DNA of 1,005 bases from Naegleria gruberi (Eukaryota), in assembly GCA_000004985.1 (NCBI GenBank), contig GG739627.1. One strand, 5' to 3'. Position 1 is the stretch's first letter; each line of letters starts with the position of its first letter. The notes beneath the pieces were generated by a model. The model saw only the letters and a list, made by a program, of their open reading frames with translations, ran no database searches and was not told the DNA's origin. The position numbers and the translations under genes were made by a program. This document shows positions 1 to 1,005 of this stretch, one piece after another.

Positions 1-1
1 C

Positions 2-136
2 TCGAAGGTCCTGCAAATTGTGGACAAAATAATCCACTATAATAAACATTGTTTGATGCCAAACGTTCGGGAGGTAGTCCAAACGGAGCAAGTAGGAAGT
101 AAATGCATTTTTGGGAAATACGGGGTTTCGGAGTAA
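2..136 (+). CDS. Possible 3' end of a plus-strand ORF (44 sense codons open from the window edge, stop TAA at 134-136). Weakly supported.
   Basis: Frame 2 translates to SKVLQIVDKIIHYNKHCLMPNVREVVQTEQVGSKCIFGKYGVSE*. An open frame of this length at a window edge in AT-rich DNA has roughly a 10 percent chance of arising by accident across three frames. I did not recognise the peptide. Confidence 0.2.
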   Translation, partial: SKVLQIVDKIIHYNKHCLMPNVREVVQTEQVGSKCIFGKYGVSE

Positions 137-190
137 TTTAAAATACTGTTTACAGACCGATTATTTCATCCGACATTATTTGTGGGCTTC

Positions 191-210
191 CCTTCGAATC
201 CCTTCGAATC
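191..210. repeat. Perfect 10-bp tandem duplication ccttcgaatc x2, immediately upstream of the 120-bp array
   Basis: Direct reading: 191-200 and 201-210 are identical. Each copy contains the palindrome TTCGAA. Confidence 0.9.
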
Positions 211-216
211 GGGATA

Positions 217-260
217 AAAACCCCTACAACTTGTCAATTAAAGTATATTAATAGGGTTTT
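217..260. other. Imperfect hairpin in copy 1: stem AAAACCCCTA / TAGGGTTTT with a diverged loop
   Basis: Inverted repeat aaaaccccta (217-226) and tagggtttt (252-260). The loop caacttgtcaattaaagtatattaa differs from the other copies at 7 of 10 loop positions, while the stem arms are conserved. One extra C gives a bulge. Confidence 0.45.
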
Positions 261-339
261 ATTATATTAAAAAAGAAAAATATCCCCCAAATTATGAAAA
301 AATATCCAAGTCAGGATTGAAAAATTTTCGAAAAAAAAA
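221..339. repeat. Repeat copy 1 (diverged edge copy, roughly 82% identical to consensus)
   Basis: cccctacaacttgtcaattaaagtatattaatagggtttt... aligns to the consensus with one extra C. Differences are clustered at 242-251 and 281-296. The 3' 41 bp (aaaaaatatccaagtcaggattgaaaaattttcgaaaaaaaaa) are identical to consensus. Confidence 0.9.
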
Positions 340-378
340 CCCTACCACTTGTCAATTAAGACGAGTTGATAGGGTTTT
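336..378. other. Imperfect hairpin in copy 2: outer stem AAAACCCTA/TAGGGTTTT, inner stem TCAA/TTGA, flanked by an A-run 5' and a T-rich tract 3'
   Basis: aaaacccta (336-344) is the reverse complement of tagggtttt (370-378). The inner tcaa...ttga pair sits in the loop. The hairpin is preceded by an A9-10 run and followed by ttttattatatt. Confidence 0.5.
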
Positions 379-459
379 ATTATATTAAAAAAAAGAAAAT
401 ACTTTCCCGAACTTGAAAAAATATCCAAGTCAGGATTGAAAAATTTTCGAAAAAAAAAA
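340..459. repeat. Repeat copy 2 (120 bp, identical to copy 4)
   Basis: Position-by-position comparison with 579-698 found no differences. It is preceded by an A9 run and starts CCC. Confidence 0.95.
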
Positions 460-497
460 CCTACCACTTGTCAATTAAGACGAGTTGATAGGGTTTT
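456..497. other. Imperfect hairpin in copy 3 (5' arm has CC against GGG, a one-base bulge)
   Basis: Same inverted repeat as copy 2. The 3' arm is tagggtttt at 489-497. Confidence 0.45.
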
Positions 498-578
498 ATT
501 ATATTAAAAAAAAGAAAATACTTTCCCGAACTTGAAAAAATATCCAAGTCAGGATTGAAAAATTTTCGAAAAAAAAAA
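460..578. repeat. Repeat copy 3 (119 bp)
   Basis: Same as copies 2 and 4, except that the unit starts CC instead of CCC after an A10 run. The single C/A difference lies at the poly-A/poly-C junction. Confidence 0.95.
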
Positions 579-617
579 CCCTACCACTTGTCAATTAAGA
601 CGAGTTGATAGGGTTTT
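575..617. other. Imperfect hairpin in copy 4
   Basis: aaaacccta (575-583) pairs with tagggtttt (609-617). Identical to the copy 2 hairpin. Confidence 0.5.
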
Positions 618-698
618 ATTATATTAAAAAAAAGAAAATACTTTCCCGAACTTGAAAAAATATCCAAGTCAGGATTGAAAAATTTTCGAAAAAAAAAA
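579..698. repeat. Repeat copy 4 (120 bp)
   Basis: Identical to copy 2 by direct comparison. Confidence 0.95.
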
Positions 699-737
699 CC
701 CTACCACTTGTCAATTAAGACGAGTTGATAGGGTTTT
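695..737 (-). terminator. Stem-loop followed by a T10 run on the minus strand, about 45 nt downstream of the minus-strand CDS stop. Candidate intrinsic terminator or 3'-end-stabilising stem-loop.
   Basis: On the minus strand the sequence reads aaaaccctatcaactcgtcttaattgacaagtggtagggtttttttttt. The stem is CCCTA/TAGGG plus A:T extensions, with an inner TCAA/TTGA pair, followed by the complement of the A10 run at 689-698. The stem has only 3 G:C pairs, so it would be weak as a canonical rho-independent terminator. Confidence 0.3.
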
Positions 738-741
738 ATTA
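699..741. repeat. Repeat copy 5, truncated (first ~43 bp of the unit, includes the hairpin)
   Basis: ccctaccacttgtcaattaagacgagttgatagggttttatta matches the consensus, then diverges into unique sequence at 742. Confidence 0.9.
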
Positions 742-780
742 AGCGAACAAAAATAAAGCAATTTTTTTGGTTAGAGAGTC

Positions 781-1005
781 CTATTGAATGTTTTTATTTA
801 CAGTATTTACAGACATCTTATTACGGTACCAAGATAATGCCACTAATGGTCCTCCAGGGGATCGACGAGTAGGAGGTCTTTCACGTTGATTATTTACAGG
901 TTCTTCCTCGGGTTCTTCGTAAGGTACTTCCTCTTGCTTCCTCTTCCGTTTCAATTCCTTCTCTCTTTGTTCATAAATTCCTTGTTCATGGTTAATTTCT
1001 ACAGT
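781..1005 (-). CDS. 3' part of a protein-coding gene (5' end beyond the window). The last 74 codons and the TAG stop are visible. Hypothetical protein with a charged low-complexity C-terminal tail.
   Basis: The reverse-complement frame is open for 74 sense codons and ends in TAG (complement of 781-783). The other two minus-strand frames hit stops within the first 20 codons. Translation: TVEINHEQGIYEQREKELKRKRKQEEVPYEEPEEEPVNNQRERPPTRRSPGGPLVALSWYRNKMSVNTVNKNIQ*. The codon third positions are A/T-rich, in line with the window's overall A+T richness. Rough chance estimate for an open frame this long in this composition is below 1-2 percent. I did not recognise the product. Confidence 0.55.
   Translation of the reverse strand, partial: TVEINHEQGIYEQREKELKRKRKQEEVPYEEPEEEPVNNQRERPPTRRSPGGPLVALSWYRNKMSVNTVNKNIQ

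Follow-up and report, generated by a model that had tools for sequence, protein, structure and literature searches.

The intergenic spacers of rDNA carry concertedly evolving subrepeats, such as the 60/81-bp repeats of Xenopus and the 240-bp repeats of Drosophila. The repeats closest to those described here are found on the circular extrachromosomal rDNA element (CERE) of Naegleria, of which the non-ribosomal spacer (NRS) in N. gruberi EGB harbors 7 repeat families of 34-371 bp, together with a homing-endonuclease-like ORF downstream of 28S (PMC5805870). The GenBank CERE sequences of EGB (MG699123) and NEG-M (AB298288) are 14,007 and 14,128 bp long, respectively, a difference of 121 bp. In the CERE of N. 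australiensis, a discrepancy in the number of a 360-bp repeat was settled by PCR (PMC10586121), and strains of N. fowleri differ by an indel of a 167-nt tandem repeat (PMC11075319). CERE spacer repeats have thus already been published in general terms: the open-access literature counts and maps them, and the module of hairpin, T10 run and box, its conservation across lineages and its function are not described there. For the 3′ end of rRNA transcription units, two systems are described. In yeast, the element at which Pol I stops is T-rich and follows a stem-loop cleaved by Rnt1, with Nsi1 bound 12-20 nt downstream (PMC7618708). In mammals, multiple Sal boxes bound by TTF-I downstream of the 47S unit terminate transcription and arrest replication forks (PMC5368702).

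Location of the array on the rDNA plasmid

The window (the whole stretch of 1,005 nucleotides analyzed in this study) is part of the NRS of the N. gruberi CERE, a circular plasmid of about 14 kb. It aligned with the sequences L001, L002 and L005 at 96-99% identity, and the 74-aa ORF tail encoded at its end is 100% identical to P0001 (AUH25140.1), which is named Naegleria gruberi at NCBI and matches PF05551 (E 1e-28). A word-indexed protein search with this 74-aa tail gave no match, and P0001 was recovered only by exhaustive HMMER search with the same query. From the orientation of L003, L005 and L006, the minus strand of the window was identified as the rRNA-sense strand. SSU, 5.8S, LSU, the ORF and the array are located on the same strand and in that order in L005, L003, L006 and L011, and in L003 the SSU recurs at a distance of 13,799 nt, matching a circle of about 13.8 kb. 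The order in the rRNA sense is 28S, a stretch of about 0.6 kb, a 344-aa His-Me-finger ORF, 47 nt and the array; in L006, the LSU ends at 6429 and the array occupies 8137-8777, or about 1.7 kb past the LSU 3′ end. The features of the window are as follows, all on the minus strand.

781..1005, minus: tail of the His-Me-finger ORF (PF05551, AUH25140.1), 74 codons plus TAG stop (781-783)
734..780, minus: 47-nt gap between the ORF stop and the first hairpin, 82% identical to the L006 lineage
216..741, minus: whole tandem array, four full periods (118/119/120/120 nt) plus a fifth hairpin, from Tandem Repeats Finder and the repeat search
699..733, minus: hairpin H1, nearest to the ORF and 47 nt past its stop, CCCTATCAACTCGTC-TTAATT-GACAAGTGGTAGGG
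689..698, minus: T10 run directly 3′ of H1, kept in L006 and L011
569-578, 450-459 and 331-339, minus: the other T-runs (T10, T10 and T9, respectively)
656..670, 536-550, 417-431 and 298-312, minus: box GACTTGGATATTTTT, one per unit
579..613, minus: hairpin H2, identical to H1
460..493, minus: hairpin H3, 34 nt, with one G fewer on the minus strand (one C on the plus strand)
340..374, minus: hairpin H4, identical to H1, heading the last unit, which has the variant spacer Sb
257..330, minus: variant spacer Sb of the distal unit, CATAATTTGGGGGATATTTTTC in place of CAAGTTCGGGAAAGTATTTTC
221..256, minus: degenerate terminal hairpin H′ (fold z about 0; -7.9 kcal/mol)
1..215, minus: distal flank of the array

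Five lineages have an intact ORF, with dN/dS of about 0.5; the dS of the ORF between the gruberi and L006 lineages is 0.23, and its invariant Cys and His residues cluster in the His-Me domain; a sequence search of PDB found no relative. In the distal flank, positions 1-174 are one copy of a direct repeat dispersed in the NRS, and positions 189-210 carry a tandem duplication specific to gruberi, in which the 10-bp sequence TCCCTTCGAA is present 2.2 times. A tRNA remnant considered at 189-215 was dropped after ARAGORN found no tRNA there, and searches of the short flank ORFs against Pfam, NCBIfam and PHROGs gave nothing usable. A similarity of the form TTTACAGAC...TTATT between 149-165 and 806-822 (82% over 17 nt, two copies) is most likely due to chance.

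Two other sources of the DNA were considered and rejected. The convergent ORFs and the bidirectional hairpin/T-run terminators had initially pointed to a bacterial intergenic region or to an sRNA array; no plasmid, phage, GTDB genome or IMG/VR entry matched, all the Rfam matches stayed below threshold, and a simple terminator scanner detected no site in the window. An origin from plastid or mitochondrion was dropped, the source being the Naegleria CERE.

Geometry of the tandem array

The earlier note on this DNA had proposed a 120-bp tandem array of about four copies. Both methods employed agree that it is real: Tandem Repeats Finder located it at 216-741 with a period of 120, 4.4 copies, 95% matches and a score of 922, while a separate repeat search gave five in-register copies with 119-120 nt spacing. 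The copies are arranged head to tail and share a high identity far beyond chance. Using the anchor sequence CTTGTCAATTAA, found at 230, 348, 467, 587 and 707, the periods were determined to be 118, 119, 120 and 120 nt. Periods 3 (467-586) and 4 (587-706) are identical to each other, period 2 is shorter by one base, and period 1 has diverged (106 identical among 121 columns, about 88%). The G+C content of the array is 26%, and its A/T tracts are phased.

Listing of the junctions between A-run and C-run on the plus strand (A9C3, A10C2, A10C3 and A10C3 at 328, 447, 566 and 686, respectively) bears out the claim that this homopolymer junction is the sole site of difference among the three internal units; the only such difference is the base missing from H3. 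In agreement with the earlier description, copies 2 (340-459) and 4 (579-698) are identical. The change ascribed to copy 3, a C-to-A replacement, needs correction: copy 3 (460-578) is 119 nt long and therefore has one C fewer, and its change resembles a pure substitution only when set against the A9C3 junction.

Anatomy of the repeat unit

Each unit reads, in the rRNA sense, as a 35-nt hairpin followed by a T10 run, an AT spacer of 15 nt, the box GACTTGGATATTTTT and a tail that varies. The predicted folding energy of H1 is about -20 kcal/mol with z of about -6, and both strands behave alike. Sense/antisense hairpin energies of -20.1/-19.6, -20.7/-24.2 and -23.6/-19.2 kcal/mol indicate that stability favors neither strand consistently, and a palindrome at the DNA level is thus equally possible. 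The terminal hairpin H′ folds no better than shuffled sequence; its decayed arm is the 5′ arm in the ORF sense, that is, the 3′ arm on the plus strand of the window. In the L006 lineage H′ is likewise degenerate (86% identical). In the L003 and L006 arrays, the last spacer is the ortholog of Sb.

The box starts 18 nt past the T-run, or 15 nt when the preceding CCT is counted as part of it. It was found four times in the window against an expectation of zero, and among all the CERE loci retrieved it is confined to these arrays and always located on the rRNA-sense strand. Two further candidate elements were set aside. A second hairpin in the spacer, suggested by RNAalifold, lacks double-sided changes and is disrupted in the Sb units. 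The hexamer AATAAA stands immediately 5′ of each hairpin in the window, and we give it little weight as a poly(A) signal because neither the first L006 hairpin nor the hairpins of L011 are preceded by it.

Copy number and homogenization

The same array was found at the same place in four other independent sequences (L001, L005, L003/L004 and L006). Its architecture is constant, consisting of n identical internal units, one unit with the distinct Sb spacer and the degenerate hairpin, with n = 3 in the window, n = 2 in L005 and n = 1 in L001 (all three gruberi-type), and n = 1 in L003/L004 and n = 4 in L006 of the sister lineage. The expectation of variable copy number appears to hold across these five sequences (n = 1, 1, 2, 3 and 4), the difference being possibly in part technical, because the n = 1 contigs are short-read metagenome assemblies, which are able to collapse identical units, and n = 1 is the expected result of such a collapse. 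Assemblies, for which collapse had likewise been anticipated, were directly observed to break here: the Logan contigs L002, L007 and L008 all end about 22 nt into the first hairpin, at the point where 31-mers cease to be unique. A search of a first metagenome collection with a spacer word specific to gruberi gave no match; since the word is present in L001, that collection does not include the sample of L001. In a second metagenome scan, the sole match was the L006 contig already known.

Homogenization, also proposed beforehand, is evident from lineage-specific variants that are common to paralogous copies. Four sites (columns 58, 69-70 and 79 of alignment A1) differ between the gruberi and L006 lineages, each being common to Sa and Sb within a lineage, and all three full hairpins of L005 carry a G-to-A change that no copy of the window or L001 shows. 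The array is under concerted evolution, in which copies are homogenized and whole units are probably gained and lost, and the tandem repeat itself is an ordinary case of the concerted evolution of rDNA spacers. This pattern is consistent with replication slippage, template switching or gene conversion between the plasmid copies, of which a cell has thousands. The T-run/G-run junction (A-run/C-run on the plus strand) undergoes changes in homopolymer length.

Conservation of the module across lineages

Between the gruberi and L006 lineages, the core composed of hairpin, T10 and CGAAA is identical at 50 of 50 positions, in comparison with 82% identity for the 47-nt gap, 86-90% for the spacers and 86% for H′. 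The ORF of L011 is only about 30% identical to the others, yet the module is kept there in the form AAAA-hairpin-T10-CAAAAATTTTTCAT-TCTCGACTTGTAAATTTTT; the NRS of L011 could be aligned with the others only at the 3′ ETS, the array, the 1.5 kb that precede 18S and some short patches. The L011 hairpin shows 100% pairing in the helix columns common to all lineages, and 11 of 11 tested pairs are kept in 4 distinct sequences, while slid controls gave 23-39% (the middle two pairs, register-shifted in L011, were left out of the count). In L011, double-sided changes affect two pairs (U-A to G.U and A-U to G-C), and a third pair has a one-sided change. Pairing is thus maintained through changes on both arms, as expected for a hairpin under selection, at the low power of a covariation test with 4 sequences in which 33 of 500 shuffles reached the observed score.

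Possible functions of the array

We tentatively propose, with slightly less than even confidence, that the array is a reiterated terminator or fork-pause module that would end the rRNA-sense unit, a reading suggested by its position, anatomy and conservation. According to this proposal, the hairpin and the T-run would destabilize the transcript or lead to its processing, a protein on the candidate box, located 15-18 nt further on, would serve as a roadblock, and the multiple copies would provide a fail-safe stop. The same box-bound protein may also pause forks heading head-on into rRNA transcription, as in other rDNA systems. The location downstream of LSU, the sense orientation and the presence of all boxes on the rRNA-sense strand are as expected for a terminator, and the distance from T10 to the box (15-18 nt) compares with 12-20 nt in yeast if the box is, as we infer, a protein site. 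As a counter-point, the array lies about 1.7 kb past the 28S 3′ end and behind an ORF, not directly after the rRNA gene. Counting likewise against a terminator are the negative result of the terminator scan and the hairpin energies, which favor neither strand consistently. The Sal-box sequence (GGTCGACCAG...) is absent from the array, the only matches, with 2 mismatches, being inside the ORF at 848-869, and the Reb1 site (CCGGGTAA) gave no match. By sequence, therefore, the array is not a member of either family, and at most it works alike.

The strongest competitor, which we still consider unlikely, is a neutral spacer minisatellite that arose from slippage and recombination on a plasmid of very high copy number, with a hairpin that would stall forks and so promote its own expansion, and that would serve neither the cell nor the plasmid. 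The change from n = 1 to n = 4 without visible consequence and the decay of the distal hairpin H′ agree with neutrality, as does the composition of CERE spacers, which are 18-41% repetitive with many repeat families that differ between species (PMC5805870; PMC7714845). Neutrality accounts less readily for the strictly single orientation of the box, for a core that is invariant between lineages within adjacent non-coding DNA of 82-90% identity, for a hairpin preserved through changes on both arms, and for the retention of hairpin, T10 and box in L011, in which most of the NRS is unalignable and the ORF has diverged to the above extent. The conserved internal anatomy of the unit would point to function rather than to a neutral minisatellite.

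A second and less probable view, quite unlikely in our estimate, takes the array as all or part of the plasmid replication origin or as a DNA-unwinding element. It would then resemble the tandemly duplicated origin domains present in the spacer of the Tetrahymena rDNA minichromosome. The low G+C content and phased A/T tracts of the array would suit such a role, and the module is a conserved island of the NRS. Published mapping places the single origin of the N. gruberi CERE within an NRS fragment of 2.1 kb, and vectors such as pPACeYFP.v1 use a CERE fragment of 636 bp as 'origin'; both are in favor of this view. Two exact matches to the ARS consensus flank the L001 array (1158-1168 and 2868-2878, minus strand). 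Against it, these L001 matches are outside the array, and the consensus WTTTAYRTTTW has no match in the window even when one mismatch is allowed. The array is, in addition, located at the 3′ end of the transcription unit, the usual place of terminators and fork barriers, and not near the promoter.

Two further readings bring in the neighboring ORF. The wider of them, which we regard as very unlikely, joins the hairpin-T10-box units and the His-Me-finger ORF into one plasmid-maintenance cassette, in which a plasmid nuclease or a host factor would pause forks or make breaks at the units. These events would drive recombination-dependent amplification and homogenization of the rDNA circles, of which a cell has approximately 4000, and the array itself might be the site of the one mapped origin. 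If true, the cassette would be the eukaryotic rDNA-plasmid counterpart of Flp/FRT or Fob1/RFB. The narrower one, highly improbable in our judgment, considers the units as cis sites for the His-Me-finger nuclease, which would nick or cut the hairpin or the box, and the cuts would drive plasmid recombination, homogenization or copy-number amplification. Flp/FRT of the yeast 2-micron circle and Fob1/RFB of yeast rDNA are similar in spirit. The ORF adjoins the array in every lineage seen, including L011, it is maintained intact under the above dN/dS ratio with an invariant set of Cys and His in the His-Me domain, and the concerted evolution of the array is strong, all of which speak for this reading. 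Adjacency alone is, on the other hand, weak evidence on a 14-kb plasmid, and rRNA is said to be the sole documented transcript of the CERE.

That the array is an assembly artefact, or that its true copy number is far from 4.4, is scarcely credible: short-read contigs do break or collapse at the array, and its sole variable site is a homopolymer junction, which is typical for sequencing errors, but the boundaries recur in four further independent sequences, each with at least 2.4 copies, and the array ends (the 47-nt gap, Sb and H′) are unique and conserved, leaving only the number of identical internal units uncertain.

For practical purposes, the array is a predictable point of break or collapse for assemblies of CERE plasmids, and could be used as a length marker for strain typing. 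All rRNA genes of Naegleria reside on a single small circle that is present in thousands of copies, and a short, conserved, oriented and reiterated module at the 3′ end of their transcription unit is a concrete candidate for a missing control element.

Comparison with known systems

In molecule and in kind of feature, the array agrees with the NRS repeats of the CERE in N. gruberi EGB and NEG-M, N. fowleri (168-bp tandem repeat) and N. australiensis (repeat region). As regards the tentative assignment as a terminator or fork-pause module, the yeast Pol I terminator shares with it the order and spacing in the rRNA sense, that is, a stem-loop, a T-run and then a candidate box 15-18 nt on. It differs in that the array lacks the site sequence of Reb1 or Nsi1, and in that the yeast terminator is about 90 nt past 28S, whereas the array is 1.7 kb past it and reiterated 4-5 times. 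With the mammalian Sal-box/TTF-I system, the array has in common several short boxes in the same orientation downstream of the rRNA unit; unlike that system, it has no Sal-box, and its box sits in a 120-bp unit together with a hairpin. The form of a stable hairpin followed by a U10 run is the same as that of bacterial intrinsic terminators and of the Rfam sRNA family SpF36, and this form is the source of the sub-threshold SpF36 matches (best score 32.5 bits versus the gathering score of 48). The array is nevertheless not a member of these families: it is located in a eukaryote on a nucleolar rDNA plasmid, its matches stay below threshold, and the terminator scan was negative. Finally, the array resembles the subrepeats of Xenopus and Drosophila in being tandem within an rDNA spacer, homogenized within a lineage and variable in number, with edge copies that escape homogenization; those subrepeats are enhancer and promoter duplications upstream of the promoter, whereas the array is situated on the 3′ side and contains no detectable promoter duplication.

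Structure of the tandem array

The window carries a real tandem array that lies on an rDNA plasmid of Naegleria, the circular extrachromosomal rDNA element (CERE). Tandem Repeats Finder returned one array with a period of 120, 4.4 copies, 95% matches and a score of 922, and the repeat search gave five in-register copies at a spacing of 119-120 nt. The invariant anchor word CTTGTCAATTAA stands at 230, 348, 467, 587 and 707, giving periods of 118, 119, 120 and 120 nt. The last two do not differ from each other, period 2 is one C short, and period 1 is about 88% identical (106/121 columns) to the others. From the anchor periods and the four A-run/C-run junctions, which read A9C3, A10C2, A10C3 and A10C3, the description of a 120-bp array with near-identical internal copies in the earlier note is therefore essentially right. 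The odd internal copy does differ at the junction, but by a one-base change in the length of the C-run and not by the clean C-to-A substitution that had been proposed.

Features of the window and of related CERE contigs
Window 1-174: copy of a dispersed direct repeat of the non-ribosomal sequence (NRS); copies also at L001 1760-1939 vs 3680-3856 and L006 8802-9101 vs 10722-11021
Window 189-210: perfect 10-bp tandem duplication, TCCCTTCGAA x2.2
Window 216-741: 120-bp array
Window 781-783, minus strand: stop codon
Window 784-1005, minus strand: ORF tail; ORF at L001 361-1395
Window 897-933: 12-nt coding tandem repeat inside the ORF, GAGGAAGAACCC-type
L001 2788-3054; L006 9847-10104: second NRS tandem array

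Read in the rRNA-sense direction, the array consists of three identical-type units with spacer type Sa, one unit with spacer type Sb, and then a degenerate terminal hairpin, H'. The 10-bp duplication adjoining H' is shared by the gruberi-type sequences; the L003/L006 lineage has a single copy.

Parts of the unit, rRNA-sense
1: imperfect hairpin of 35 nt, CCCTATCAACTCGTC-TTAATT-GACAAGTGGTAGGG
2: T10, after the hairpin
3: CGAAAATTTTTCAAT, after T10
4: box, CCTGACTTGGATATTTTTT
5: tail, about 40 nt, closing with ...AATATAATAAAA

In the window, each unit holds this strong hairpin between A10 and T4. On either strand it folds at about -20 kcal/mol (z about -6), and H' folds no better than shuffled sequence. 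Neither strand is favoured in stability, so that a DNA palindrome is equally possible. Matches to the Streptococcus SpF36 sRNA and mir-454 families in Rfam (window 321-382, 440-501, 559-636 and 679-756) stayed below threshold (up to 32.5 bits vs 48); they simply reflect a hairpin plus U-run and are no evidence of either family.

Location on the rDNA plasmid

The AT-richness and the strong hairpin in each unit gave a first impression of bacterial origin, which was dropped for lack of bacterial matches: the window matched nothing in plasmids, phages, GTDB genomes or IMG/VR, and nothing above threshold in Rfam. The open frame on the minus strand runs off the right end of the window, and its tail gave no match in a word-indexed protein search. 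An exhaustive HMMER search matched one protein, P0001, of 344 aa and identical to the query (100%) over residues 271-344, with a Pfam match to PF05551 (E 1e-28), the zinc-binding loop of His-Me-finger homing endonucleases; its NCBI record is AUH25140.1, 'hypothetical protein [Naegleria gruberi]'. On contigs encoding P0001 or its relatives, eukaryotic SSU, 5.8S and LSU rRNA genes lie just upstream on the same strand, and the SSU gene of the related contig L003 recurs after 13,799 nt, a distance that fits an assembly running more than one full turn around a circle of about 13.8 kb. We consider it very likely that the window is part of the closed circular CERE, and place as much trust in the overall dynamics of the array.

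In Naegleria, rRNA genes are found only on the CERE, of which each cell contains about 4000 copies. The N. gruberi EGB element measures 14,007 bp, with an NRS of 8,152 bp carrying 7 repeat families (PMC5805870). The plus strand of the window is antisense to the rRNA genes; the rRNA-sense order is 28S gene, about 0.6 kb, ORF, 47 nt, array, and a flank from the dispersed NRS direct repeat. This distal flank is one copy of the repeat (about 200-300 nt), copies of which are about 92% identical and about 1.9 kb apart. Some 1.1 kb past the 120-bp array comes the second NRS tandem array, with about 2.5 copies of 101-102 bp.

The EGB announcement described the ORF that follows 28S as 'likely a pseudogene' (PMC5805870). 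Five diverged lineages have it intact (344-355 codons), dN/dS being about 0.5 at dS 0.22-0.64 and the invariant Cys/His residues clustering in the His-Me domain, which suggests that it still codes for protein. The 12-nt repeat inside it encodes EEPE. As the L006 ORF has one EEPE more than that of L003, to which it is otherwise near-identical, the ORF also holds a length-variable repeat. In L006 the SSU gene is interrupted by a twin-ribozyme group I intron (GIR1, 202.7 bits, with a 245-aa PF05551 ORF), whereas that of L003 is intron-less although the NRS ORFs are near-identical (L006 193-1120 vs L003 1463-3482), evidence that within this lineage the intron is present in some members and absent from others.

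Apparent variation in unit number, and homogenisation

The architecture and boundaries of the array are alike in four other independent sequences, with a different number (n) of Sa units.

Number of Sa units (n=1 values are lower bounds)
Window, gruberi-type: n=3
L005 (ENA metagenome), gruberi-type: n=2
L001 (JGI), gruberi-type: n=1
L003/L004 (JGI), sister lineage with ORF 83% identical: n=1
L006 (NCBI GCA_006365155.1), same sister lineage: n=4

The sequences thus differ in apparent unit number, n being 1, 1, 2, 3 and 4 with both values of 1 as lower bounds. The warning that such arrays can collapse in assemblies also held. The repeat does break and collapse them: the Logan contigs L002, L007 and L008 stop some 22 nt inside the first hairpin, where 31-mers lose uniqueness, and a fourth, L009, ends just short of where the hairpin would start. 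Similar behaviour is on record for other species. In N. australiensis, the PacBio and Nanopore sequences showed a 360-bp discrepancy within a repeat region, and PCR gave three repeats 'in the majority of CERE' (PMC10586121); N. fowleri strains differ by a 167-nt tandem-repeat indel (PMC11075319). The EGB and NEG-M elements of N. gruberi (14,007 and 14,128 bp) are 121 bp apart in whole-element length (PMC5805870), about one array unit.

Sb can be recognised as orthologous between the gruberi and L006 lineages, which places the origin of at least two units before the split of the two. Four sites in the first spacer half differ between the lineages, with Sa = Sb within each (alignment A1, columns 58, 69-70 and 79), and a G-to-A change is found in all three full hairpins of L005 and in none of the closely related window and L001. 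Homogenisation, put forward in the earlier note alongside recent expansion, is directly demonstrated by these observations; the array is homogenised and probably also changes its unit number.

Conservation of the hairpin-T10-box module

Identity between the gruberi and L006 lineages
Hairpin + T10 + CGAAA: 50/50 (100%)
Rest of spacers: 86-90%
Degenerate hairpin H': 86%
47-nt gap after the stop codon: 82%

Over the same pair of lineages, the ORF has a synonymous divergence of 0.23. L011 is a far more distant CERE, in which the ORF (P0009) is about 30% identical. Downstream of that ORF lies a repeat of about 230 nt; in its homologous core, AAAA-CCCGGTCAGTTTGTC-TTCATT-GACACTGACTGGG-T10-CAAAAATTTTTCAT-TCTCGACTTGTAAATTTTT, both hairpin arms are altered and pairing is retained. 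For the helix columns common to all lineages, leaving out the middle two pairs shifted in register in L011, 11/11 pairs are paired in all four distinct sequences, two of them with both partners replaced (U-A to G.U, A-U to G-C) and one with a single partner replaced. Pairing falls to 23-39% in a control with slid partner columns; with four sequences only, the test has low power, 33/500 shuffles reaching the observed score. The 15-nt motif GACTTGKAWATTTTT is confined to these arrays among all fetched loci, always on the rRNA-sense strand (4 in the window vs 0 expected; three per unit in L011). The array thus carries a conserved, oriented hairpin-T10-box module. The NRS of L011 aligns with the other lineages only at the first ~230 nt after 28S, the array, the ~1.5 kb that precede 18S and a handful of short patches, and the module is therefore one of few conserved islands in an otherwise fast-evolving spacer.

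The L011 box TCTCGACTTGTAAATTTTT is itself amplified: a 29-bp tandem occupies 11764-11827 and recurs at 11994-12057, so that each ~230 nt unit has three boxes; the contig ends inside the second hairpin of this array (11637-12119).

Possible function of the array

The repeat belongs to a published molecule, the spacer repeats of which are counted or mapped in open-access papers without being dissected; as a tandem repeat of an rDNA spacer evolving in concert, it is a standard textbook case. The conserved module, with its layout like that of a Pol I terminator, appears to be undescribed in the open-access CERE papers.

That the array is a neutral minisatellite agrees with the free variation in unit number and the generally repetitive CERE spacers, but does not fit conservation of the module in L011, and we regard it as doubtful. 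Less probable still is a replication origin or unwinding element: the CERE replicates by a theta mechanism from a single origin somewhere in the NRS and the array is AT-rich, but the yeast ARS consensus is absent from the window, and its two exact matches in L001 flank the array (2868-2878, minus strand, in the second NRS tandem array; 1158-1168, inside the ORF). A nuclease-plus-target or origin-associated cassette that maintains the plasmid population is very unlikely, and even more so are cis sites for the adjacent His-Me nuclease, the sole grounds for which are the constant ORF/array adjacency and the intact ORF with dN/dS about 0.5 in five lineages. An assembly artefact, bearing only on the exact count of identical units and not on the existence of the array, is the least probable of all.

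Our tentative preference is that rRNA-sense transcription would read through the ORF and end at the module, the reiterated units acting as a fail-safe terminator or 3'-end module, and that the array might secondarily serve as a polar fork pause. Against this count the start of the array 1.7 kb past the 28S end and a hairpin that is not clearly more stable on one strand. A further point against it is that the array contains no Sal-box or Reb1 sequence, the likeness to Pol I terminators being in layout and not in sequence. In the yeast Pol I terminator, Rnt1 cleaves a 3' ETS stem-loop, termination takes place at the T-rich T1, and Nsi1 forms a roadblock 12-20 nt downstream (PMC7618708); the rRNA-sense order of stem-loop, T-run and conserved box 15-18 nt downstream fits the same logic. 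In its reiteration, the array recalls mammals, in which the rRNA unit is followed by multiple Sal-box/TTF-I sites that arrest replication forks as well (PMC5368702), and it is the yeast-like order together with this mammalian-like reiteration that leads us to prefer the terminator or 3'-end reading.
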